From IMG/VR virus record IMGVR_UViG_3300025529_000020, positions 1 to 37,835 of that record: DNA of 37,835 bases; one strand, written 5' to 3'. Both the position numbers and the translations under genes were made by a program. The notes under the pieces are model-generated. The model had not been told where the DNA came from. It did no database searches and saw nothing but the letters and a program-made list of their open reading frames with translations. Source of the DNA: a virus. Each line of letters begins with the position of its first letter. Position 1 is the first letter of the stretch. Positions 6,633 through 37,835 of the stretch are shown piece by piece.

Positions 6633-7048
6633 GGGACCTCATCCCCTCGTCGACGTTCTGGGGGAGGGCCGTACGCAGACAGCCTGCTCCGGTCACGCGC
6701 TGTCCAGTGTTGGCGTATCGGCACCGTCATCACCCCACCGTGTCCCATCACACGCGCGATCTCCGCGCGCTCGTCCGGGGACAACACGGTGCCGACCGGG
6801 CGACCATCCGCACGCCACGTGTAGTCCCCGATGGTTTCCGATGAAACCCCCAGCGGGTTAGCGAACGTGCGTATGGCGACACGAAGCACGATAGGCTCCA
6901 ACGCGGCGGGAAGCGGGGCATCGACTGACAGCCCCGCTTCCACACGCACCGCGGTCTCGGCGTCTTCCAACGCCGCTTGGACACGCTCGTGCTCCGTGTC
7001 AGGCACCGGTTGGGGATACCGCGCGAGAAACTGCTGTACAGTTGGCAC
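6620..7048 (-). CDS. Head-tail connector protein (gp6-like)
   Basis: 142-aa ORF directly downstream of major capsid gene. Confidence 0.5.
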   Translation of the reverse strand: MPTVQQFLARYPQPVPDTEHERVQAALEDAETAVRVEAGLSVDAPLPAALEPIVLRVAIRTFANPLGVSSETIGDYTWRADGRPVGTVLSPDERAEIARVMGHGGVMTVPIRQHWTARDRSRLSAYGPPPERRRGDEVPWWR

Positions 7049-7064
7049 GGTATCTCACCACCTA

Positions 7065-8084
7065 TCAGTCGTTGCTTCCGCCGTTACCGTTACCGTTACC
7101 AGGGTCACCAGGGTCACCAGGGTCTTCATCTTCCTGGATCACGGCCGCGACCGCGCGCAGCATGGTCGGGTTCTCCATGTCCACAGTTTTGGCACCGTCA
7201 GCGTCATACGTGATCTCGGGGTCGAGAGTCTCTCCCACGCCGACAAACGTGGACAAAACCGACCGGTCGCGAGCTGTTGCGCTGTTGTAGTCGCGCAGAG
7301 CACGCATGGCCACGCCAGCGTAGGAAATACTGGAGCCAGAAACTGCGCCCTCAGGAACACGCGGTGCCCGAGTCACCAGCGTGTACGCGCTGGGATGCAG
7401 TGCCACCATGCGGTCGGGGTCGATCGCTGGGGACACCACCACGCGGAAGCCGTACAGGTTCCCCAGTTCCGCGGCCCGCAGCGCACTCGCATCGCCCGCA
7501 TAGCTGGCGCGAGTCAGGTTCGGATCTTGGAGAAGGTAGCCCTCGACATCCACACCAACAACAAGCACGCGGCCAGTCATCGGCACGCTACGCGCGTTCA
7601 GGATCTTGCGCAGTTCGGTGATAGCCCTACGGACCTTGCCACCGCCCAGATCGTCCGGGGTACCGCTCACCGTAAACGCCGGTGTCAGTCCGTTGAATTT
7701 CGCGGCGATCAGCGATTCAACACGGTCAGCAATCGCGCGAGTCTGCGGAGCCAGCACCTGAGCACCAAAATCCACGATGTCAAGAGTCAGCTCCGCATCA
7801 GTCAGGTCCACCGCCGAGTAAATGTGGTGCTGCAGCGAGACCGAAATACTACCTTCCTCCAGATCCTCAGTCTGGAGCTGGTAGCTCGAGCCCTGCATGT
7901 CCCGCAGAGCTTCGATGGTACCCGACAGCAACGACGGTCGCTTGATGTTGACAGTATCGCCGCGGGCACCGGTGAACTCTGCCCCAGCGTCGCGGCCAAC
8001 CAGCGCGGTCAGAACCAGCTCACGTTCAAGCAGGCCAACTGCGGCCGACGCCCACTTCTCAGCTTTCACAATATTATGAGCCAT
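7065..8084 (-). CDS. Major capsid protein (HK97-fold type) with Gly/Asp/Pro/Asn-rich C-terminal tail
   Basis: 339-aa ORF after the scaffold gene; C-terminus DPGDPGDPGNGNGNGG encoded by short tandem DNA repeats. Confidence 0.75.
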   Translation of the reverse strand: MAHNIVKAEKWASAAVGLLERELVLTALVGRDAGAEFTGARGDTVNIKRPSLLSGTIEALRDMQGSSYQLQTEDLEEGSISVSLQHHIYSAVDLTDAELTLDIVDFGAQVLAPQTRAIADRVESLIAAKFNGLTPAFTVSGTPDDLGGGKVRRAITELRKILNARSVPMTGRVLVVGVDVEGYLLQDPNLTRASYAGDASALRAAELGNLYGFRVVVSPAIDPDRMVALHPSAYTLVTRAPRVPEGAVSGSSISYAGVAMRALRDYNSATARDRSVLSTFVGVGETLDPEITYDADGAKTVDMENPTMLRAVAAVIQEDEDPGDPGDPGNGNGNGGSND

Positions 8085-8659: not shown

Positions 8660-9414
8660 GCATCACCTTCTCCTGCCTCGTCTTCCTTACGCCGCTGCTG
8701 TTCCAACTCACGGCGAAACGCGTTCAGGTTGGCATATTCAAGGTTGTCCCACATTGTCGCGTACTGCTGGGACGTTGGATGCAACCGGTAGCGACCCCTG
8801 CCAAAATACGGCTCAACAGTGCACTTGCAACCACGGTGCCAATGCCGCCCTGCCCCTGCAGCCCACGCGGACGAGTACACGGGACCGCGGGATGCCAACA
8901 TTGCGCAGAACGCACAACAGCGCGCACGCGCGATCCTTGCCCACCTCACTCGGCGTGGCTCCGCCTGCATGAGCGCGGCCAACGCGGTACGGCCACCCGC
9001 CATGGACGTGCGCGTAGCATCCAGACTCAGCGCTACAAGTGAACGCCGAGCAGCAGCCTCTTCAGCAAGCCCATCCTCCACGAGCGCGGTGACATACGCC
9101 GGACCCCAACGCGTCACCGACTCGCTCCATGCCCACGGATCCAGCTGATCCAGGATCACGGACGTGAACGGGTCTTGCACACCCTCGGCCGCACGAAACC
9201 GCTCATAGTACCTTTGCGCTGTTTCCGCGGACAACCGATACGCGGACGCTACCTCAGGAGCCTGCTCCGCCACCCATGAAGCGAACGCTGCAGGATCAAA
9301 CGCAACCTCGTCAGTCCACTCCGCCTCAAATGAACGGAGCAGGCTCTCCAGAATACCTAACTGAGCGGTGCGATGCGCTTCAGTGAGCACCGCACCAGCC
9401 TCAGTCACCGCCAC
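8656..9414 (-). CDS. Head morphogenesis / minor capsid protein (SPP1 gp7 / Mu F-like)
   Basis: Position immediately after portal; conserved His/Cys cluster (HWHRGCKC). Confidence 0.55.
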   Translation of the reverse strand: MAVTEAGAVLTEAHRTAQLGILESLLRSFEAEWTDEVAFDPAAFASWVAEQAPEVASAYRLSAETAQRYYERFRAAEGVQDPFTSVILDQLDPWAWSESVTRWGPAYVTALVEDGLAEEAAARRSLVALSLDATRTSMAGGRTALAALMQAEPRRVRWARIARARCCAFCAMLASRGPVYSSAWAAGAGRHWHRGCKCTVEPYFGRGRYRLHPTSQQYATMWDNLEYANLNAFRRELEQQRRKEDEAGEGDA

Positions 9415-10846
9415 CAGGATCCCCCTCCTCGACAGACAGAGAACCCCCGGAGGCCTCTACAGGAAGCGAAGTTTCGTCACCGCGGAGCAGCGTCGCGGCA
9501 ACCTCCGCAACATCCGTAGCCATATCCCGCTGTTTCAGCCGTTTCCACCTGCGAATCTGGAACGGCGTAACACCCGGGATCAGTTCCCACAACGCCTCTG
9601 CAGGGATGCCCAACATGGTGGCCAGTTTGCCGAGAGCATCCGCGGAAGCAGCGAGAGATCGTGCTTCTGTGTCGCGCCACACAACACGAGCACGGGTGTT
9701 CTCCGCATCCTCGAATTGTCCTGCAGCAAACGCCAAAAGACGGAATACACGCGACCATGCTTCTCCGAAAACCGCCTTTCTTTCCGAGACTTTTCTTGAC
9801 AGCCCCGCTTCCGCGGCTGCCAGCGCTTCCGCGCTAATGTTGACCAGCCCACCGAGAAGATAGTGTGGCGGCACTTGCGCAATAGTCGCCATGTGTTTAA
9901 TGGCAGATTCTTGCGACGCAAGATACCCCGTCAAATCCGTTTCCGTGAACTCACCGAATCTTGCGTCTTTAGACGCGGTAGTCCACAGTCGGTTCACCGC
10001 GGCCTCGAACGGCTCAATCGGCCGCCCGGTTTCCGGATCGCGGGGAATCTCCACACCGGTAGCCCATTTCTGCTTAAACGCCGCATACTGCTGAGCGATC
10101 AGCAAGCCCAACGTTGTATCGTTCAGGCGATCCTGCAGCGGGATAAGCGGCCACACCTCGCCGAGCTCCGCGATCCGCACATCCGGATCATCAGTCCACT
10201 GATTGCGGAAAACCACCACGGGACACACACCGAACGGGTGAGTCCAAGAATCCAACAGCCTGTATTCCTGGACGTTCCCGTAATCTCCGGACGGAACCCA
10301 GAATGACCACACACCCTCAGCGTCCACGAGGTCCCACACATCGCCCACAAGTCCGAGTTCGTTTTTCACTCGGGATCGCGAGCGACGGATCGCATAGTCC
10401 GGATATTCCGCATCCGGATCCTCCTGAACCACATACATGGCCAGCGGGGAATACACGCGCGCCACGGGACCTGGATCGCCAGGCCACACCATCACGTACC
10501 CGTGTCCATACGTCAACGCGGACCGGTACACATGCATTTGGCGTGACAGCATCCCGTTAGCCACCCAATATTCCCACACGTTGAGGTTATCGGGATGCTC
10601 ATCATCACGGTAACCCTCGACATAGAGGTTTTGCGCCACCGTGGTGACGATCAAAGGAAGCCAATTCCCGATTGCTTCTTGGCGGAATCCCGAGAATTCA
10701 CCCTCGTGGGAGCGCGGCATGTACGAGGGATCGTGGAGACCCCGCATATACCTACGCACGCGGTCCAGCGCTTGTTCCTCGTCCACACGAGATCGCAGCG
10801 CGTGCGCCAACCGCTCCTCCGCAGTCACTGGACCGCCTCCTTTCAC
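9401..10846 (-). CDS. Portal protein
   Basis: 481-aa ORF directly downstream of terminase large subunit; acidic C-terminus. Confidence 0.8.
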   Translation of the reverse strand: MKGGGPVTAEERLAHALRSRVDEEQALDRVRRYMRGLHDPSYMPRSHEGEFSGFRQEAIGNWLPLIVTTVAQNLYVEGYRDDEHPDNLNVWEYWVANGMLSRQMHVYRSALTYGHGYVMVWPGDPGPVARVYSPLAMYVVQEDPDAEYPDYAIRRSRSRVKNELGLVGDVWDLVDAEGVWSFWVPSGDYGNVQEYRLLDSWTHPFGVCPVVVFRNQWTDDPDVRIAELGEVWPLIPLQDRLNDTTLGLLIAQQYAAFKQKWATGVEIPRDPETGRPIEPFEAAVNRLWTTASKDARFGEFTETDLTGYLASQESAIKHMATIAQVPPHYLLGGLVNISAEALAAAEAGLSRKVSERKAVFGEAWSRVFRLLAFAAGQFEDAENTRARVVWRDTEARSLAASADALGKLATMLGIPAEALWELIPGVTPFQIRRWKRLKQRDMATDVAEVAATLLRGDETSLPVEASGGSLSVEEGDPGGGD

Positions 10847-14030: not shown

Positions 14031-15635
14031 CTACTCCGCGTAGACCGCTCCCTCACTCTCCGCGCTCTCCCCAGCGTCTGCCCATTCGATCCGCAGTCGG
14101 TGCGGACCAACGGTGCGTGGCTGTCCGAGTCTTACCGGGTAGATGATGACCCTGTTGATCGCGAGGTGGAGTAGGTCCCGCACCAGCGCTCGCTGTCCGC
14201 GTTCCACTGCGTCCCGCATCGCATCTGCCAGCGTTTCCGGATCGTCCACGAACCCCAAGTCCAACGTTGCTTGTGACCGCGCGATAGCGGCCTGCAGCTC
14301 TCGGAGTTCCGCGGACAGTGACCGCATCTCCGAGACGAACAGCTCCGGAGCGTCCTCGTAGGCTCCTGCCCTGAACGCGTCGTGGAGTCTTTGACGTACG
14401 GTCTCGATTTCTTGGATCCGTGCGCGCTTCGCCGCGATTTCTTCGGACTCGCTTGGTTGTTGTCGAGCTGTCCACCGCTCAGCGATGATCAGTGCGAGCA
14501 TGTCCGTGGGTTCAAGCGCGGTTATTCGGTTGAGCCACTCGGCGATCACGAGCTGCTCTGCGCGTTCTCTGGTGATCCGCGCTGGTGCGGGACATGTGGC
14601 TATCGCGGACGTGACGGATGCGCACACCTGTTGCACACCGGATGCTGGTGCGGAGCGTCCGCATGTGCCACACACCGCGATCCCGGTCAGGATGTGTTTT
14701 CTGTGTCTCGCAGTGGGGCGTACGATGCGGCGACGTGTAGAAAACGTGGTGATGTTCTTTGTGAGCCTTTCGAGGAGCTGCTCTCGCTCGTCCGGCGTGA
14801 GCACACCTTCCCCGATGCTGACGAGTCGACCTTCCTCGTCACGGTAAGGTTCTACCAGGTGGGATTTGCCGTTGTTTGCGCGGCCCGCTACCTGCAGCCC
14901 TGCGATTGCGGGGTTGGTGATCAGGCTGATGTAGGTCGTGACGTACCAGATGCCTCCACTGGGGCCGCGGATGCCGAGTTCGTTCTGTTCAGCAACCACG
15001 CTACGCGCTGAGCGTCCGCCGAGAATCTGTTCCGCTCCCCAACGCAGGACCTGGGCACGCGTTCGACCGTCTTCGGTCGGTGTGGTGTAGTCGGGACGTA
15101 CCTTCCGTGTTTTCGGATCTAAGAGGAGTCCCCACGGCACGCTTCCCCCGATCCATTCTCCGTCTCGGCGTTGCCGGGCCTTGCTGATGTGGATTCTGTG
15201 GGATAGGTCAACGCTGTACTGTCGAGCACGCTCCGCCTCATCGATGATGTGGCGACGGTCATGCTCGTCCAGCGTGTCGTAGCGGTCCCAGTAGAAGATG
15301 ACCCGGTGCTTGCCCAGCATGGGGAGTACGTCTTCTGCGCCTCGACGAGTAAGGCGGTCCAGCCTGAAAACCCACAGTGCCTCGACTTCTCCGCGTTGTA
15401 GTGCGGCAAGTGCCTTTCGGAACACCGGCCGTTCCCGGTCCGCGTATGCGGAGCCTAATTCTCGCCACACGTGCCGTACTTGGCTGCCTACCTGTGCTGC
15501 CCAGTGCCGGCCGATTTCCTCCTGTTCCCGGATGGAGACTTCGCGTAGGCGGTCGCCTTCGGAGAGAACCCGGGATTTCCTCACGTACAGGTCCACCGTT
15601 TTTGGTGGTGGGAGTAGTTGGGAGTGGGGGAACAC
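14031..15635 (-). CDS. Large serine recombinase (phage integrase)
   Basis: N-terminal resolvase-type catalytic motif VDLYVRKSRVLSEG...RLDRLTRR, central recombinase domain, Cys-rich zinc ribbon (CGTCGR...C...C) and coiled-coil C-terminus; GTG at 15635 with GGAGG RBS. Confidence 0.8.
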   Translation of the reverse strand: MFPHSQLLPPPKTVDLYVRKSRVLSEGDRLREVSIREQEEIGRHWAAQVGSQVRHVWRELGSAYADRERPVFRKALAALQRGEVEALWVFRLDRLTRRGAEDVLPMLGKHRVIFYWDRYDTLDEHDRRHIIDEAERARQYSVDLSHRIHISKARQRRDGEWIGGSVPWGLLLDPKTRKVRPDYTTPTEDGRTRAQVLRWGAEQILGGRSARSVVAEQNELGIRGPSGGIWYVTTYISLITNPAIAGLQVAGRANNGKSHLVEPYRDEEGRLVSIGEGVLTPDEREQLLERLTKNITTFSTRRRIVRPTARHRKHILTGIAVCGTCGRSAPASGVQQVCASVTSAIATCPAPARITRERAEQLVIAEWLNRITALEPTDMLALIIAERWTARQQPSESEEIAAKRARIQEIETVRQRLHDAFRAGAYEDAPELFVSEMRSLSAELRELQAAIARSQATLDLGFVDDPETLADAMRDAVERGQRALVRDLLHLAINRVIIYPVRLGQPRTVGPHRLRIEWADAGESAESEGAVYAE

Positions 15636-15674: not shown

Positions 15675-15705
15675 GCGACCTTGTGGAGTGTTCGTGTTTG
15701 GGCAT

Positions 15706-15744
15706 GAAAAAAGACCCGTTCGCCGTTGGTTGGTGAACGGGTCT
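15706..15744 (-). terminator. Intrinsic terminator (GACCCGTTC...GAACGGGTC stem followed by TTTTTT)
   Basis: 9-bp GC-rich stem and U6 tract on the minus strand; lies inside the over-extended ORF-track integrase ORF. Confidence 0.7.
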
Positions 15745-15762
15745 TGGTCCGCTGATTGGTGC

Positions 15763-15853
15763 GGGACCATCCCCACATGCGTGGGGAGCAGGTTTTGAGG
15801 TCCGTCTAGAGTAAATCCAGGCCGGGACCATCCCCACATGCGTGGGGAGCAGG
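15763..15853. repeat. Two 30-bp direct repeats GGGACCATCCCCACATGCGTGGGGAGCAGG (15763-15792 and 15824-15853), each with an internal hairpin
   Basis: Exact 30-bp duplication with 61-bp period; each copy contains palindrome CCCCAC-ATGC-GTGGGG. Confidence 0.8.
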
Positions 15854-15922
15854 ATGTTTGGATCCTGATACCCGCAGTTGCGGGAGCACGTGCCCTACTG
15901 TACTGGAGTGTGGGGGCGTTGT

Positions 15923-16537
15923 CTACTCGGAGTCGTCTTCCTGGAGCTCTTCCCGGAGCTCATCCCGGTAGCTCGTCAGGCGTTCCAGGATGTCTTCGTA
16001 GGCCTCGTCTGGCAGCACACCGCTGGGAACGCCCTTCTCGAGGTCTACCACGGTCCTACGTGCCAGCTCTTCCAGCTGTTCATCGGTGGTGTCGGTGTCC
16101 ACCTCGTCCCGAACGTAGGGGAACCAGTCGTCCTCGTCGAGGGGGAAGACTTCGTCTTCCGGGAACCACCGGCCGGGGTCTTCCACCAGCTCCGAGATCT
16201 TTTCCTGAGCGCGGAAACCTTCAGGCAGGAGGTAAGCGCGCCAGTCGTTACCATCCCATTCCTCGTCCCAGTGGTCCAGCATGGTTTCCACCAGCGGCTT
16301 GATCTTCTCCATGGTGGCGTTGGCCACGTCCGCGGTGAGCGGGGGGATCCGGAAACGGCGGACGTATCCGGCCCAAACCGACTTGGGGATAGCTCCCCCG
16401 ATTTCCGGGTCGTAGGTGGCGGAGATGGTGCCCCTCTCAAGGTCTACCTCGATGTAGCAGGGCTGTGGCTGGTGGCCCTGGATGTGGCAGTAGAGCTCAC
16501 CGGGGGTTTCCACCTTGATGATGGTTGCCTTCGCCAT
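15923..16537 (-). CDS. Highly acidic hypothetical protein (204 aa)
   Basis: ORF with Asp/Glu-rich C-terminal two-thirds (DEEWDGNDW, EDEVFPLDEDDWFPYVRDEVDTDTTDEQLEE); first gene of the minus-strand early region, divergent from the Xis-like gene. Confidence 0.5.
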   Translation of the reverse strand: MAKATIIKVETPGELYCHIQGHQPQPCYIEVDLERGTISATYDPEIGGAIPKSVWAGYVRRFRIPPLTADVANATMEKIKPLVETMLDHWDEEWDGNDWRAYLLPEGFRAQEKISELVEDPGRWFPEDEVFPLDEDDWFPYVRDEVDTDTTDEQLEELARRTVVDLEKGVPSGVLPDEAYEDILERLTSYRDELREELQEDDSE

Positions 16538-16643
16538 GGTGGTGCTCCTTTCTAGTTGGTACCGCAGTAGTGGTTGATGCGGTTTCTGTCGACCTGATGC
16601 CTACAGCATACCCGGTTGTCGCTTTGTTGTCTACACTGGTGCC

Positions 16644-16844
16644 ATGATTTCTCGATCCGATGACGAGTACGTGGACATGCAGGAGCTGGCACAGATGCTG
16701 GGGGTTCAGTACGCCACCATCCGCCAGCAGCGGTATCGAGGTCGTCTCCCAAAGCCGGACCGGGTGTTCGGGCGTTCCCCGGTGTGGCGGATGGGGACGC
16801 TCAGGCAGTGGGCACGTGAGGCTGGGAAAACCTTGGACGAGTAG
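16644..16844 (+). CDS. Helix-turn-helix DNA-binding protein, excisionase/AlpA-like (66 aa)
   Basis: Plus-strand ORF with HTH-like segment ELAQMLGVQYATIRQQRYRGRLP; followed by a canonical terminator. Confidence 0.6.
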   Translation: MISRSDDEYVDMQELAQMLGVQYATIRQQRYRGRLPKPDRVFGRSPVWRMGTLRQWAREAGKTLDE

Positions 16845-16855
16845 GAGGGATCAAG

Positions 16856-16890
16856 GGCCCCGGGTGTAGTGTCCGGGGCCTTCTTTTTTG
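16856..16890 (+). terminator. Intrinsic terminator after the Xis-like gene
   Basis: GGCCCCGGG-tgtagtgt-CCGGGGCC hairpin followed by TTCTTTTTTG. Confidence 0.75.
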
Positions 16891-17323: not shown

Positions 17324-18034
17324 CTAGGCGACCTGTTCCCGGCCGGTGCCACCGCACTCACCGCACGCGATCGGCGGGGTGGCATCGTCCACCGGGAGTT
17401 CCCCATATCCGCCGCACGGGCGGCAGGACGGGGGGTTGGCCTGCACGTCCGCCTTGTAGGCGGACTCCAGCCCCTTCAGGGCCGAGAGCGCGGCCCGGGT
17501 CTCCGCCCGGAGCCGAGCGGAGATGAACTGCATCTGTTCCAGGACGGTGAGCTTCCGCACCCCATCCCGGAACGCGTTCACGCTGCCTCGGCGAACCTCG
17601 GCGGCGGCCTCCAACAGCTCCGAGGCTCCCCGACGATCCCGGTCTTCGGTGATCGCCGTTTCTGCGACTCGGATGAACATATCAGCGGCCGTGGTGCGCG
17701 GGGAGGCTGCCATTACCCGCGCGAGGGCGCGGGCCCGCACAGGCTTCCCGTTGACCCGCTCCACGTTAGTGGGGACGACCAGGTCAGTCCGGTGACTGGC
17801 GCGCTCCGCCACGGGGCGAGCGACCACATAAACCACACCGGGCTGAGGGGAGGGGAGAACGTCGTCCGCGTCTCCCAACGCCTCCCGGACCACGGGGATT
17901 CCGTTGATCTCCCCGTCCGGGTAGGTCTCGGCGGGGAGCCGAACCGGGGTCGCCTCCGGCTGGATTACCACCTCGTCCCCGTTCGCGGTGACGAGCGTGA
18001 CGGGGTGCGGGGTGAGGTTGACGATTCTGGTCAT
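17324..18034 (-). CDS. Hypothetical protein with C-terminal DnaJ-type CxxCxGxG zinc-finger pair
   Basis: ATG at 18034 with GGAGG RBS; C-terminus CRPCGGYG...CGECGGTG. Confidence 0.5.
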   Translation of the reverse strand: MTRIVNLTPHPVTLVTANGDEVVIQPEATPVRLPAETYPDGEINGIPVVREALGDADDVLPSPQPGVVYVVARPVAERASHRTDLVVPTNVERVNGKPVRARALARVMAASPRTTAADMFIRVAETAITEDRDRRGASELLEAAAEVRRGSVNAFRDGVRKLTVLEQMQFISARLRAETRAALSALKGLESAYKADVQANPPSCRPCGGYGELPVDDATPPIACGECGGTGREQVA

Positions 18035-18065
18035 TGGAACCTCCAGGGGTTTCGTTGTGGTTTCC

Positions 18066-18095
18066 ACATTAGCATGATTGAGCAGTGCTGAGCAA
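18066..18095 (-). promoter_or_regulatory. Sigma-70-like promoter (TTGCTC - 18 nt - TAATGT) for gene 17324..18034
   Basis: Hexamers with 18-nt spacer read on the minus strand; spacer AGCACTGCTCAA resembles the two other promoters. Confidence 0.45.
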
Positions 18096-19602: not shown

Positions 19603-20556
19603 TTACGCGGCTGCCAGCTCGACTACTACCCGCCTCAGCTTTCTCAGCGCAGCGGCCTTGAGGGAACGTACACGTCCGGGATCGATTCCCATGATGTGCG
19701 CGGTCTCGGCGACACTGAGTTCCGGACCGCCCAGTCCGGTCAGGTGTACCAGTGCCTCACGCTCCCGGGGGGACACGTGATCGAGCAGACGATGCACGAG
19801 GTCCCGAGTTTCCACACTGGCTAGTGCAGCGGCCGAGCGGTGGCACTCCGCCGTGTCCCCGATGGTCTGCGTGGCGCTCTCGTCACACAGTTCCGACACC
19901 GGGGTATCCACGGACACATAATGTAGGGCTTCGTGGATGGCATCGAACTGTGCGTAGGACAGACCACGTGCGGTTTTGTCGTCTAGCTGCTGTGCCACAT
20001 CTAGCCCTTCCCGCTCCCAGCGTTCAATACGGCGGTCCAGGATGGCGGCAGCCATGTCATCTCCGGAGTCCGCCATGTCCTGCAGTTCTCGGCCGGTCAA
20101 CCCCTCACGGTGGGCCCATTCGCGTGCGAGTACCGGGTCGTGTCCACACGCTTCCATGGCTCTCCAGTAGCGGTGCTGTGCGGACGAGGAGATGCGGAAC
20201 GGGGAGCTGGCTACAGCGGCCTCCCTCACAGCGTTCTGGATGTGGCGATACGCCACGGTCATAGGTTCTGCAGAACCATCCGGGTCGTAGTCTCGCAGAA
20301 CCTCCACCAGCGCCATTAGCGCGGCCTGGTAGAGGTCCGCGTACTCCGCACTACGCTGGTAGTTTCTGACCAGGTGGTGGATCTGGTCTTCGTAACGTGC
20401 GGCAAGGATGACAAGCCCTTCGTCTCCGTACGCGGGGAGCTGACGGTTGGGGACGTGATCAAGGCCCAGACGTTCTTCGTAGGCACGTGCGGCGGTGCGG
20501 ACTGTGGCACGGACGATGTGTGCGGGGGATCTGGTGGCGATCAGTTCATCCAACAT
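19603..20556 (-). CDS. Phage-encoded sigma-70 family RNA polymerase sigma factor
   Basis: Region 2-like segment DLYQAALMALVEVLRDYDP and region 4-like HTH LSVAETAHIMGIDPGRVRSLKAAALRKLRR. Confidence 0.75.
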   Translation of the reverse strand: MLDELIATRSPAHIVRATVRTAARAYEERLGLDHVPNRQLPAYGDEGLVILAARYEDQIHHLVRNYQRSAEYADLYQAALMALVEVLRDYDPDGSAEPMTVAYRHIQNAVREAAVASSPFRISSSAQHRYWRAMEACGHDPVLAREWAHREGLTGRELQDMADSGDDMAAAILDRRIERWEREGLDVAQQLDDKTARGLSYAQFDAIHEALHYVSVDTPVSELCDESATQTIGDTAECHRSAAALASVETRDLVHRLLDHVSPREREALVHLTGLGGPELSVAETAHIMGIDPGRVRSLKAAALRKLRRVVVELAAA

Positions 20557-31561: not shown

Positions 31562-32401
31562 TTACGCCGGAACTGTCGTGGCCAGTTTCCGTCGCGCGTC
31601 GCGTAGCACGTTCCTTCCCCAGCGGTCCGTGCGTCCGTAGCGGGTCCCGATTTCCGCTCCGGTGAGCGTGGTTCCGTTCCGGAGCTGTTCCGCGACCCAT
31701 TCGACAGCGGAACGGCGTTCCGCGCTGTGCGGGGGTACCACGGACACCGGAACGGTCGTAGGGGCTCCCTCCTCCACTACCGGAACGCGGACATTCCGTT
31801 CCTCGTCCCGCTGTTGTTCCTCGTTCCGCTCTTCGTTCCGCGCTGTTCCGCTCTTCGTTCCGCTGCTGTTCCGTTCCTCGTTCCGTTCCTCGTCCCCCGG
31901 TTGTTCCGTGTTCCGTTCCTCGTCCCGTTCCCCATTCCGCTGTTGTTCCTCGTCCCGTTCCTCGTTCCGCTCTTCGTTCCGTTCCTCGTTCCGCTGCTGT
32001 TCCGCCCTGTTCCGTCTACCTGCAGCAAGGGCCACCGACGCAACGACCACTAGTCCATCTACAGACAGTGGCAGCAGGATGGCCACAAGCTCCGACTCCC
32101 CGTACTGGAGCAGGAGCCCGCGCATGTGACCGTAGGAGACCACGGCCGCGGCCAGCGCTACGAGGAAAGCTCCCACCCACTCAACTGCGGACAGCAGTCC
32201 ACGCGGACGCTGTCCACGAACCATCATCTCTGCGACCAACAGCAGCGCTACCGGTGCCCATGCCGCAAACAGCATGGCACCGATGTCTGTTCCGTCCGCG
32301 TTCCGTTCCGCGGCGTGTGCCACGTTCGCGGCGATGCTGGCTCCTGCGCCGAGTAGGAACGCTGTCCAGGGGATGGCGTTTGATCTCGGTTTTCCGCTCA
32401 C
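31562..32401 (-). CDS. Membrane protein with central EERN tandem-repeat low-complexity region (start uncertain)
   Basis: Three or more hydrophobic helices, then (EERN)n repeats, then Arg-rich C-terminus; first possible start after the upstream gene stop is GTG at 32401. Confidence 0.45.
   Translation of the reverse strand: MSGKPRSNAIPWTAFLLGAGASIAANVAHAAERNADGTDIGAMLFAAWAPVALLLVAEMMVRGQRPRGLLSAVEWVGAFLVALAAAVVSYGHMRGLLLQYGESELVAILLPLSVDGLVVVASVALAAGRRNRAEQQRNEERNEERNEERDEEQQRNGERDEERNTEQPGDEERNEERNSSGTKSGTARNEERNEEQQRDEERNVRVPVVEEGAPTTVPVSVVPPHSAERRSAVEWVAEQLRNGTTLTGAEIGTRYGRTDRWGRNVLRDARRKLATTVPA
31790..32015. repeat. Imperfect tandem array of GTTCC(G/T)-containing units (about 12-bp period) encoding EERN repeats
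   Basis: Plus strand reads TTCCGTTCCTCGTTCCGCT... repeatedly; translates as EERNEERNEERDEE on the minus strand. Confidence 0.8.
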
Positions 32402-32514
32402 TCGTGGGTTCTCCGTTCCGTTCCGCTGTTTCCGTTCCGGGGCTTCCGTTCCGCCAGCGGTCCGGGAATTCCGTTCCGCTGGCGTTCCTCTACTTCCGTT
32501 CCGCTGGTGTTCCT
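32402..32514. repeat. Iteron-like array: five direct copies of TTCCGTTCCGC(T/C)(G/A)G (minus-strand CCAGCGGAACGGAA) in intergenic DNA
   Basis: Copies at about 32414, 32431, 32445, 32470 and 32494 between the stop of gene 32515..32937 and the start of the membrane protein gene. Confidence 0.7.
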
Positions 32515-32937
32515 CTACTCCCGCTCCGCCACTCGGTGACCGTGTTCCGTGGCCTCCACGTAAACCGCTCCAGCCTTCCGAAACGCCCTCAGCATCCCCC
32601 GCTCCAAGAGCGCAGTGATATGGCGTGCGGTTACTCCTGCAGCGCGGCACGCACTCGGCGACATGTGCAGCGCTCCGTTCTTGATGATGGTGCGCAGTGC
32701 GTTCCGCTGCTTCGCCGAGAGTGTGCGCGCGTTGAGCCGTCGTCCGCGACGCACTGCTTCCGCGGCCTGTTCGGGGGTTGTATACCGGAACGATAGATAA
32801 CCCACCCCCAACAGGTAGGCCCTCCACGGCCGAGCGGGGTTGTCGCCACGCCAAGAGACCAGGCCGATGATCTCGGGGCCGTTCTCACTGAGAACCACGC
32901 GCTCTGGGCGGGACGGGCGGTTGTTCTGTGTGGTCAT
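32515..32937 (-). CDS. Hypothetical protein (140 aa), possibly DNA-binding
   Basis: ATG at 32937 with GGAGG RBS downstream of terminator H3; Arg/Lys-rich. Confidence 0.45.
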   Translation of the reverse strand: MTTQNNRPSRPERVVLSENGPEIIGLVSWRGDNPARPWRAYLLGVGYLSFRYTTPEQAAEAVRRGRRLNARTLSAKQRNALRTIIKNGALHMSPSACRAAGVTARHITALLERGMLRAFRKAGAVYVEATEHGHRVAERE

Positions 32938-35981: not shown

Positions 35982-37835
35982 CTATAGTCCGACAATCGCT
36001 CCGCGGAACAGTCGAATCTCCGTTCCCGCCGTATGGGGTTTGTGGATCCCGTTGGTAGCGCGCTGCACAGTGAACGTCTGCGTGGTGCCTGTTCCGGAGA
36101 TCGAGGCCACGCGTACAAGCTCCCCACCAACGAACATGTCCACAGGAAACGCCTGCGGCTCTTCTTCCGTGGTCACCCAGCGCGGTCCCCGAGTGGTGCG
36201 CACCGTGAACGTGGTTTGGACGCTGTCAACGTCCTCGTCCAGCTCCGCACCGGCAGTGTCAGCGCGGCACTGATCCTGCGGACCCACGTCCCCATCCGGA
36301 TCCGCGATCACCCCAATGAGCAGCGGTCCACCGGACGAGGCATTGAACGTCACCTCCCACGTGTGCGGGCCTAGACGCTCCTCATAGCCCTCGATCTGCA
36401 GTTCGATGGGCTCTGGTGGTAGCCACGGCGGTGGGTTGATGATCTGCAGGGCATCCCCCGAGTCGCGCACAGCCACGATGTCGACGAGGCCAGGGTTGCG
36501 TGCCAGGTTGATCGTGACCGTGGGGTACCGGGCATCGTCCCACGTGCCCAGGTGCAGCCGCCAATGCGCTAGGTCCCACAATTGACGTTCGTGGGCTGCA
36601 TGTAACGTCTCGGACTGCTCGTAGCGTCCCACGCCCAGTGGAGGCGGCTGCACTGATAGTGCGCCTTCCTCCAGCACCGCGCGGTACTCCGTACCCCGTG
36701 GCATGCTCACGGTCACATCATTAGCTAGCCGCTGGTCATCCTCGATAGGCTCCCACGGCTCGCTGATGTGTCCCGCACTGTAGTCCAGCACCACGGACAC
36801 CGCGGTATCGGTACGCGCTCGGCCACGGAACACCAGTCCCCCACGTGCCGCACACGTGCCGTGTTTGCGTGCTGTGGCGAACTCCCCCACGGTCATGCCG
36901 CCGAGAGCACTCCCACGGCCGTGGTGGAGCACATCAACGTGGTGGGATCCCACATGCATCCCGCCGAGCGCATCCGTGACCGCGGTGCGAGAACCCGCAA
37001 CTGCAGCACCGTCCACCGTGAAACGGCTCACGGCCGCACCCTGCGGTACCGCGTACCCTGATGCATGACCACCAAAGCTCAGGCCACCGGACGCTGTCGC
37101 GCCAGCTCGACGAGCCTCAGCGTGACCGCCCATGGTCAGCCAGTGCATCGCCCACGTCCAGCGTGGCGGTGGTGCGGGGCCGAGTGGACCGTCATCGGCG
37201 ACAGCTACGTGGGACACCCACAGTGAGGGTGGGTAGCCCTGGCCGCGGTGAAGACGTAGCGCAAGGTCGATTGCCGCCAACGTTTCAGGACCGACAACAC
37301 CATCGACTGGTAGCCCGTAGTCAGCCTGAAACGCTTGGACCGCTGTGACCGTTTCCCCACCATAGTCGCCATCCGCACCGTACAGCGGCAGCGGATACCC
37401 CAGCTCGAGCAGGGCTTCCTGCATGGCGGTGATTTCCGTATCCCCACGCGAAGCATCCGACTGGCCAGGGAGCAAGATGATACCGCGGCGGTAGCGGTAC
37501 CCGGTCAGCACCAGCTGGCCATGGAACGTGTACCCATTCCAACGGTGGATCCGTGTACGGTCACCAGCGGGGTTTGTCACCCGAGACTCGAAGAAGGCAC
37601 TTCCATCAGTATGGAATTCGACCAACCACCACTGGCCGATGGGGACCGCGTTACCTGTCTCTTCTGTCCAGTTGATAGCTGTTGCGGCCAGATCGTCAGG
37701 CTGGAGCCGAGTCCCGATGTTGCCGGACGCGGTCTCGTGAACCACCCATCCCAGCCCCGCAGTCGGGAAATGCGCGACCCAGCGCACCTCGTTGATCCCG
37801 TGTCCCGCTGCCTGCAGTCCCGGTGCCCACATGTA
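35982..37835 (-). CDS. Tail protein with peptidoglycan-binding domain (3' portion; N-terminus wraps to 385-1)
   Basis: 616-aa ORF reaching the window edge; PG-binding-like segment ITAMQEALLELGYPLPLYGADGDYGGETVTAVQAFQADYGLPVDGVVGPETLAAI; in frame with the upstream ATG at 385. Confidence 0.6.
   Translation of the reverse strand, partial: YMWAPGLQAAGHGINEVRWVAHFPTAGLGWVVHETASGNIGTRLQPDDLAATAINWTEETGNAVPIGQWWLVEFHTDGSAFFESRVTNPAGDRTRIHRWNGYTFHGQLVLTGYRYRRGIILLPGQSDASRGDTEITAMQEALLELGYPLPLYGADGDYGGETVTAVQAFQADYGLPVDGVVGPETLAAIDLALRLHRGQGYPPSLWVSHVAVADDGPLGPAPPPRWTWAMHWLTMGGHAEARRAGATASGGLSFGGHASGYAVPQGAAVSRFTVDGAAVAGSRTAVTDALGGMHVGSHHVDVLHHGRGSALGGMTVGEFATARKHGTCAARGGLVFRGRARTDTAVSVVLDYSAGHISEPWEPIEDDQRLANDVTVSMPRGTEYRAVLEEGALSVQPPPLGVGRYEQSETLHAAHERQLWDLAHWRLHLGTWDDARYPTVTINLARNPGLVDIVAVRDSGDALQIINPPPWLPPEPIELQIEGYEERLGPHTWEVTFNASSGGPLLIGVIADPDGDVGPQDQCRADTAGAELDEDVDSVQTTFTVRTTRGPRWVTTEEEPQAFPVDMFVGGELVRVASISGTGTTQTFTVQRATNGIHKPHTAGTEIRLFRGAIVGL
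37709..37835. repeat. Terminal direct repeat: exact duplicate of 1-127
   Basis: Identical to window start; an ORF reads through the junction in frame. Confidence 0.9.

Follow-up and report, generated by a model that had tools for sequence, protein, structure and literature searches.

The gene in question encodes a highly acidic protein of 204 amino acids (aa) and lies on the minus strand of the virus record IMGVR_UViG_3300025529_000020 of IMG/VR, which we analysed over its positions 1 to 37,835 (the window, 37,835 nucleotides [nt]). The first 127 nt of the window are identical to nt 37709-37835, which indicates a circular assembly and thus a complete phage genome of about 37.7 kb. Directly downstream of the acidic gene we found a small CRISPR-like array, described in its own section below, and the gene itself is defined by the following two features.

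15923-16537, minus strand: gene of the acidic protein, 204 aa, ATG start (open reading frame, composition, ribosome-binding site and family annotation)
16545-16552, minus strand: ribosome-binding site GAAAGGAG, 7 nt 5' of the ATG and invariant in relatives

The acidic gene and the DUF8280 family

The open reading frame is a genuine gene under purifying selection, as follows from its ribosome-binding site, a GC content of 0.80 at third codon positions (0.68/0.38/0.80 at positions 1/2/3), the 13 synonymous against 7 non-synonymous differences that separate the first 118 codons from those of an 88%-identical relative, and its homologues, which comprise 15 close ones in a large protein collection (all with at least 79% identity and each annotated PF26929) and a very large family beyond them. 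The product has 51 Asp and Glu residues (25% of the protein) against 20 Lys and Arg, with a net charge of -31 and a pI of 4.2, and 19 aromatic residues, 6 of them Trp. By segment, the net charge is 0 in residues 1-68, -9 in residues 69-120 and -22 in residues 121-204. An earlier note on this DNA, written from the letters alone, had described a product enriched in Asp/Glu over its C-terminal two-thirds and in aromatics, encoded divergently from an Xis-like gene and placed first in the minus-strand early region. The compositional part agrees with our counts, as the charge is concentrated in residues 69-204, and the divergent neighbor is indeed a 66-aa gene of the HTH_17/excisionase-like type (16644-16844, plus strand). 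The placement has to be corrected, since the early genes, from about 33 kb down to 17.3 kb, precede the acidic gene, which forms a separate unit with a promoter-like site of its own.

By precomputed annotation the protein belongs to Pfam PF26929 (DUF8280), and the exact protein carries this label on metagenome contigs; the Pfam copy that we scanned did not contain the PF26929 model, and the family name comes from the precomputed annotations only. No match was obtained in our copies of Pfam, PHROGs, NCBIfam and PADLOC, nor among the PDB sequences, by single sequence or by a DUF8280 family profile. A tblastn search of the INPHARED cultured phages with the query and a distant member was also without a match, so the family is apparently absent there or masked by the low-complexity filter, and a literature search on PF26929/DUF8280 found no paper. 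By its sequence and its predicted fold (see below), the protein falls within DUF8280, which is catalogued without an assigned function, and not within the families of Ocr, ArdA, the known anti-CRISPR (Acr) proteins or the recombination directionality factors (RDFs) of the phiC31 gp3 type.

The family is large and widely spread. A profile built from the close homologues and run against 1.84 billion representatives (clusters at 50% identity) retrieved at least 1,479 at E<=1e-3 and 717 at E<=1e-10. Members are mostly 190-210 aa long, every named one is a 'hypothetical protein', and they come from Streptomyces, Micromonospora, Nocardia, Deltaproteobacteria, Dehalococcoidales and many metagenomes, where the carriers are phages, prophages and Streptomyces (actinomycete) plasmids. 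One linear plasmid, of Streptomyces sp. NBC_00513 (locus L010), codes for two DUF8280 genes within 3 kb (6899-7804 and 9291-10028), the first of them divergent from a small helix-turn-helix (HTH) regulator in an arrangement like that of the window. The acidity is a family-wide trait and not incidental: 148 representatives have a median net charge of -28 with about 20% of residues Asp or Glu, and the family alignment contains 16 columns that are at least 60% acidic against 3 basic ones, with the charge in the middle and C-terminal parts. Near-invariant positions are L15, Q25, G47, V54, N73, W94, G96, A110, D152 and R191. We saw no catalytic-type residue set among the conserved positions, which fits a binder rather than an enzyme.

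Structure prediction with AlphaFold2 on 106 diverse sequences gave a model with a pLDDT of 95.7 and a pTM of 0.84, and an earlier run on the 15 close homologues (pLDDT 61.5) was discarded in its favor. In this model, an N-terminal sheet (strands 5-7, 27-32, 37-42 and 59-64) is followed by a helix (69-88), a hairpin (90-103), a second helix (105-118) and three further helices (135-145, 152-169 and 179-203). A fold search of the PDB, which includes solved DNA mimics, with this high-confidence model gave no match, and the predicted fold is confidently modelled and unlike any solved structure.

These results bear on the proposal of the earlier note that the protein is a DNA mimic of the Ocr/ArdA type acting on restriction, for which structure prediction had been suggested as the check. 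As the sequence searches of Pfam, PHROGs, NCBIfam, PADLOC and the PDB brought no match, and as the high-confidence fold matches none of the DNA mimics in the PDB, membership in either family fails. Ocr (T7 gp0.3) has no sequence similarity to the protein and a different fold, an elongated helical dimer with the shape of bent B-DNA, and for ArdA neither the sequence similarity nor the three-domain fold was found. DNA mimics are structurally heterogeneous, so mimicry as a mechanism may apply even without a fold match. The dense Asp/Glu content typical of the class is present here and throughout the family, its exposure on the surface being assumed. Like Ocr and ArdA, the protein is small and cytoplasmic, is encoded by a mobile element, is extremely negative in charge and shows no apparent catalytic residues, and its gene has a promoter-like site to itself.

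We consider it unlikely that the protein is a restriction-directed mimic in the functional sense of Ocr and ArdA, one that would imitate B-DNA and block type I restriction-modification or BREX-type enzymes, the neighboring array being unrelated to it. Its extreme, family-wide acidity is comparable to that of Ocr and ArdA, and the wide taxonomic spread of DUF8280 would suit a broad-spectrum mimic, DNA-mimic anti-defence proteins having been reported to be broad-spectrum (bioRxiv 10.1101/2025.06.06.658234). The acidic gene also lies near the packaging genes and could enter the cell early if a cos or pac site is located between the integrase and small terminase genes, as in phiC31-like genomes. 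However, sequence and fold relate the protein to neither Ocr, ArdA nor any other solved mimic, and nothing restriction-related was found in the DUF8280 neighborhoods. The context of the acidic gene is CRISPR-related. A weak HsdM_N match (E 6e-4, in 1 of 56 long members) could not be traced among ten long members scanned singly and was not used. As to the target, the earlier note's restriction enzymes find no evidence of their own, and the context points instead to CRISPR-Cas of type I-E. The more general idea in that note, an acidic phage protein that counters host defence, is the best-supported reading of the family acidity, the DNA-binding fusions, the AcrVA2 neighbors at two loci and the mini-array, which are taken up in what follows.

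The mini-CRISPR array

A promoter-repeat-spacer-repeat-terminator unit (15705-15925, minus strand) follows the acidic gene, with its first repeat 71 nt past the stop codon, and consists of the following parts.

15897-15925, minus strand: promoter-like TAGACA-17-TACAGT over the stop of the acidic gene, a possible array promoter (consensus scan)
15824-15852, minus strand: type I-E-like repeat 1, CTGCTCCCCACGCATGTGGGGATGGTCCC, 29 nt (exact copy, hairpin)
15792-15823, minus strand: spacer GGCCTGGATTTACTCTAGACGGACCTCAAAAC, 32 nt, between both repeats
15763-15791, minus strand: type I-E-like repeat 2, identical to repeat 1 (exact copy), 61 nt from start to start
15705-15745, minus strand: array terminator, a hairpin with 14-nt arms (93% complementary) and T6, conserved in relatives (inverted repeat)

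An exact pair of 29-nt repeats is expected 0 times by chance, and the features seen in type I-E host arrays are present, namely, the 29-nt repeat, the 32-nt spacer, a 7-bp hairpin and an 8-nt handle. The hairpin, with its 7-bp stem and 4-nt loop (-12.8 kcal/mol), has the shape seen in host repeats. Transcription of the array by read-through from the acidic gene is as possible as transcription from the putative promoter. The leader is 100% conserved in relatives, and within it, 7 nt ahead of the first true repeat, there is a degenerate repeat-like hairpin (15860-15889, minus strand; GTGCTCCCGCAACTGCGGGTATCAGGATCC) that may be a decayed repeat. The array is kept in relatives, with a different 3' half of the spacer in one of them (L001) and the loss of one repeat-spacer unit in another (L002), where a solitary repeat remains. 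The phage itself has no cas genes. For the spacer, no target was found elsewhere in the window, in 160 fetched loci (host contigs included) or in IMG/VR beyond the phage itself.

A scan of metagenomes with a degenerate repeat pattern identified at least 119 contigs, many with long arrays of 61-nt period and several from the sample series of the phage contigs. The handle ATGGTCC(C/G) is common to the phage repeat and to more than 1,000 repeats in these metagenomic arrays. The commonest metagenomic repeat is (G/C)TGCTCCCCGCGCACGCGGGGATGGTCCC, and a second one, GTGCTCCCCACGCACGTGGGGATGGTCCG, shares the stem A-U pair of the phage repeat and differs from it by one loop base and two end bases. The hairpin has a stem of 7 bp and a loop of 4 nt in all three, and the phage repeat retains it through a compensatory change from G-C to A-U. 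One contig (L111) carries an array of 24 repeats of the GTGCTCCCCACGCACGTGGGGATGGTCCG type, one spacer of which matches the large terminase gene of the phage (window 12260-12291) at 29 of 32 positions, and this match indicates that a likely host lineage uses type I-E CRISPR against this phage lineage. The 5' flank of that protospacer is AAA.

In its sequence, the mini-array imitates the repeats of the likely host. It resembles described viral mini-arrays and their RNA anti-CRISPR and crRNA-like (CRISPR RNA-like) relatives, Racr and Cracr, in having two host-like type I-E repeats, one spacer, a promoter-like site, a terminator and no cas genes, in its reduction to a single repeat in L002, and in the presence of the likely host array family in the same sample series. 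It differs from them in that the phage repeat is not identical to any sampled host repeat (one loop change and the end bases). It adds one more case to an already described class of viral elements. Three roles, each described for viruses, could be served by such a unit: it could be a mini-array that targets competitors (PMC11656645), it could regulate in the manner of a crRNA, or it could work as an RNA anti-CRISPR. This last role is played by solitary repeats and mini-arrays of viruses, which cluster with acr genes within 1 kb (PMC10651486), and crRNA-like arrays of viruses silence type I-E systems in synergy with Acr proteins encoded alongside (bioRxiv 10.1101/2024.10.29.618823). In the AcrIC5-RacrIC1 case, one viral repeat unit is located 11 nt downstream of AcrIC5 (PMC10651486), and the acidic gene is similar in having a CRISPR-repeat mimic directly 3' of it.

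Genomic context in the window and in relatives

Almost all genes of the window lie on the minus strand. In the sense of that strand, the order starts with tail genes and lysins, followed by the endolysin and then by the early genes (about 33 kb down to 17.3 kb), which include an exonuclease, a primase/helicase, DNA polymerase A, endonuclease VII, a sigma-like protein, several small genes and a 247-aa protein. Past the early region, the 66-aa HTH gene lies on the other strand; on the minus strand there follow the acidic gene, the mini-array, a serine integrase and a 105-aa gene, and then the genes for the terminase subunits, the portal and the capsid. This order sets the acidic gene apart as a unit of its own where the early region ends. 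The features that surround it are these.

16605-16633, minus strand: sigma-70-like promoter TAGACA-17-TATGCT, predicted for the acidic gene and back-to-back with the start of the HTH gene (consensus scan)
16644-16844, plus strand: gene of a 66-aa DNA-binding protein, HTH_17/MerR-excisionase-like (Pfam, PHROG)
16854-16882, plus strand: terminator-like hairpin and T-run 3' of the HTH gene, between the early operon and the acidic gene (sequence scan)
14031-15635, minus strand: large serine integrase, 534 aa (Pfam Resolvase and Recombinase, PHROG 95 at E 2e-57, same gene call on identical contigs)
17324-18067, minus strand: 247-aa protein, last gene of the early operon (PHROG 21731, E 8e-118)

The 66-aa protein matches Pfam HTH_17 at E 1e-4 with 22.9 bits (under the 27-bit cut-off), PHROG 597 at E 1e-13 and PHROG 66, 'excisionase and transcriptional regulator', at E 2e-6, and is a candidate regulator of the divergent promoters or the excisionase of the integrase. 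Its synteny with the acidic gene is kept in three relatives (L001, L040 and L041). Relatives with an 88%-identical protein share 97% identity over the 106-nt divergent region, with both promoter hexamers unchanged. No operator-like inverted repeat was seen in the divergent promoter region, and Rfam returned nothing meaningful around the acidic gene.

The serine integrase, 287 nt from the acidic gene, raises the question of whether the acidic protein could assist integration or excision as its RDF or regulator. Serine-integrase RDFs are diverse and often unrecognisable by sequence. The acidic gene is co-oriented with the integrase gene and lies directly upstream of it, with the same synteny in relatives, and its mid-sized product, from a phage that encodes a large serine integrase, is in these respects similar to the RDFs of the phiC31 gp3 and Bxb1 gp47 type. 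We nevertheless regard this role as very unlikely. The promoter-array-terminator unit stands between the two genes, and the 66-aa HTH_17/excisionase-like protein is a better RDF candidate. The protein is unrelated to phiC31 gp3 (hhalign E 0.65), and a DUF8280 hidden Markov model finds nothing in the six-frame translation of phiC31. Elsewhere, moreover, the family occurs without serine integrases: in our survey of about 44 independent DUF8280 loci from phages, prophages and Streptomyces plasmids, a large serine integrase flanks the gene only in the clade of the window (0/30 and 0/14 of the other loci), and tyrosine integrases were found at 3. As a family-level function of DUF8280, an RDF was rejected on the missing gp3 similarity and this lack of co-occurrence.

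About one-fifth of DUF8280 members have a C-terminal extension of at least 45 aa, and the fused domains are XRE-type HTH (HTH_31, HTH_3), Aca2/YdiL-like, RHH and, at the N terminus, Phd/YefM; one member (P0043) has a C-terminal Aca2_YdiL domain at 27.3 bits (cut-off 23.8) together with HTH_31. DNA-binding modules of the HTH, RHH and Phd types are the kind attached to self-regulated inhibitors, such as anti-CRISPR-Aca fusions and antitoxins. In the locus survey, an HTH_17 protein is found directly upstream of DUF8280 at 4 loci and a DEAD-box helicase downstream at 3. At two loci (L005 and L014), an AcrVA2 homologue (PDB 7ci1, E 1.7e-20) follows 2-3 genes downstream. The most frequent neighbor is an actinomycete family of about 300 aa ending in RVNVLRR, located 1-2 genes downstream at 7 loci (L009, L028, L030, L032, L034, L035 and L168). 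Its 63 homologues are all 'hypothetical', without a Pfam annotation, and a 38-sequence profile gave no PDB match; its C-terminal ~115 residues align with AcrVA2/FinQ homologues weakly and not significantly (hhalign E 0.016 and 0.053).

Fusions to DNA-binding domains fit regulators as well as inhibitors, and both RNA polymerase and H-NS-like proteins are known targets of acidic phage proteins. The protein might, then, be a host-takeover or regulatory factor unrelated to defence, which would bind RNA polymerase, a nucleoid protein or, as an anti-repressor, a phage repressor, and would help in the lysis-lysogeny decision. The divergent promoters with a small HTH protein beside an integrase do resemble a lysogeny-control region. 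We hold such a role to be improbable, as a conserved repressor-like partner is missing and DUF8280 occurs also on plasmids and at varied positions in phages, after the tail genes (L004 and L013) or beside dnaB (L009), a scatter that fits accessory genes better than core lysogeny control.

Phd/YefM and XRE/Aca2-type fusions, together with the RVNVLRR family at 7 loci and the AcrVA2 homologues at 2, could also be read as signs of an antitoxin-like protein that neutralises a co-encoded partner, either a member of the ~300-aa family or an AcrVA2/FinQ-like protein. This is highly improbable for the phage of the window, where the mini-array and the integrase are found downstream instead of such a partner, and where a Pfam scan of the 204-aa protein reveals no DNA-binding domain; most DUF8280 loci, too, are without a conserved partner. 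A type II antitoxin was rejected, since the protein has neither a DNA-binding domain nor an adjacent toxin gene and the fusions are found only in some relatives.

Two of the surveyed loci have CRISPR-like repeats of their own near a DUF8280 gene. In an unrelated viral contig (L013, 5675-8230), the gene is followed by a TnpB/Cas12-like protein of about 617 aa, with a C-terminal CxxC...CxxC and a DQDRSAA motif, and then by an array of at least 5 repeats of 36-37 nt with a 71-73-nt period; from its sequence, this locus looks like a phage-encoded type V-like CRISPR locus. In the other (L027), a Streptomyces DUF8280 gene has, some 1.8 kb downstream and just past a strong terminator hairpin, a pair of imperfect hairpin units that are type I-E-like (7338-7430; core ACCCCCGCTCGTGCGGGG) and spaced 61 nt apart, which are either a degenerate mini-array or a chance feature.

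Other genes of the window deserve a brief description. The 247-aa protein possibly belongs to the same accessory region as the acidic gene. Its N-terminal half matches PADLOC PDLC01138 'Unk_01' (E 4.5e-19), a small unknown protein sometimes fused to CARF, and a further counter-defence role is conceivable for it, such as one directed at cyclic-oligoadenylate signalling. Its C terminus contains CxxC...CxxC motifs. The gene has 85-87% DNA identity to the Thermobifida phages P318 and P1312, the sole DNA similarity to cultured phages in the window, which suggests a Thermobifida-like host. Just upstream of the run of small genes, a sigma-70-like phage protein of 317 aa (19603-20556, minus strand; Sigma70_r4 on identical contigs) suggests, from its annotation, that the phage may redirect host RNA polymerase for part of its programme. 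Finally, a 430-aa open reading frame (31562-32854) with a weak excisionase-like HTH match (PHROG 733) contains direct repeats that are imperfect, about 23-29 nt long and spaced by 84-87 nt (CATTCCGTTCCTCGTCCCGCTGTTGTTCC..., 31792-31975).

Counter-defence as a proposed role

Taken together, we rank first the reading that the acidic protein is an anti-defence inhibitor, directed in this phage probably at type I-E CRISPR-Cas and possibly acting by nucleic-acid mimicry, and we give it a probability of roughly 0.4. A conflict-type binding protein is suggested by the uniform acidity, the compact and confident fold without catalytic signatures, the restriction of the family to mobile elements and the regulator-type fusions, and type I-E is suggested as the likely target by the mini-array beside the gene with its host-like repeats. 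Whatever binding, target or effect on defence we ascribe to the acidic protein, we infer.

The mechanism that we propose is as follows. The acidic protein would be a cytoplasmic, strongly anionic DUF8280 binder that serves the phage as a counter-defence factor. Its gene would be transcribed from its own promoter under the control of the divergent HTH protein, and the product would bind stoichiometrically a host protein that grips nucleic acid. The block would be made through the acidic surface of the central and C-terminal helices, as an electrostatic or nucleic-acid mimic, if these residues are exposed as we assume. Gene and mini-array would form one locus, the array RNA loading into or titrating host Cascade/Cas6e. 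The most likely target here would be the host's CRISPR-Cas of type I-E, and a broader range may be possible, as with Ocr. The full version of this idea, in which DUF8280 is a large unrecognised anti-defence family that has a new fold, works by nucleic-acid mimicry and, with the mini-array of this Thermobifida-like phage, makes up a two-part system of protein and RNA that disables host type I-E CRISPR-Cas, is doubtful and is put forward here as a speculation.

Compared with anti-CRISPR acr-aca loci, which include the DNA mimics AcrIF2 and AcrIIA4 and the Acr-HTH fusion AcrIIA1, the locus is similar in being a phage accessory gene with an adjacent small HTH gene, and some DUF8280 relatives are fused to Aca2/YdiL-like HTH domains or located near AcrVA2 homologues. 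Unlike the known Acrs, it has no homology to any of them, its HTH gene is of the HTH_17/excisionase type, its 204 aa exceed the length of most Acrs, and DUF8280 is far more widespread than typical Acr families.

Several points weigh against the reading that we rank first. Strong acidity is common in proteins with other roles, and neither sequence (Pfam, PHROGs, NCBIfam, PADLOC, PDB) nor fold gave a similarity to known anti-defence proteins. The HTH gene is divergent, whereas classical acr-aca operons have theirs downstream, and its product may be an excisionase. The pairing of acidic gene and mini-array may reflect simple adjacency in a variable accessory region beside the integrase. Among the ~44 loci, CRISPR repeats are nearby only in the clade of the window, in L013 and, weakly, in L027, and AcrVA2 homologues only in 2. 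As the CRISPR link is confined to a few lineages, DUF8280 as a whole may have a broader target or another one, if it has a general target at all.

Acidic proteins that inhibit stoichiometrically are already known as a kind, to which, if our preferred reading is correct, DUF8280 would bring a new family and a new fold. Should the protein turn out not to be an inhibitor, the case would show that a protein cannot be grouped with Ocr or ArdA by its acidity alone. As an inhibitor, it would provide one for actinomycete type I-E systems, of which that of Thermobifida fusca is the standard biochemical model, and as this biochemistry is established the idea is directly testable in vitro. The acidic gene and its repeat-mimic RNA would be a further instance of protein and RNA cooperating against CRISPR, in a phage group without a described case. 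A new fold would be added to the short list of acidic, possibly nucleic-acid-mimicking inhibitors, and a function would be assigned to a family of well over a thousand clusters, carried by phages and plasmids of Actinomycetota and other phyla.

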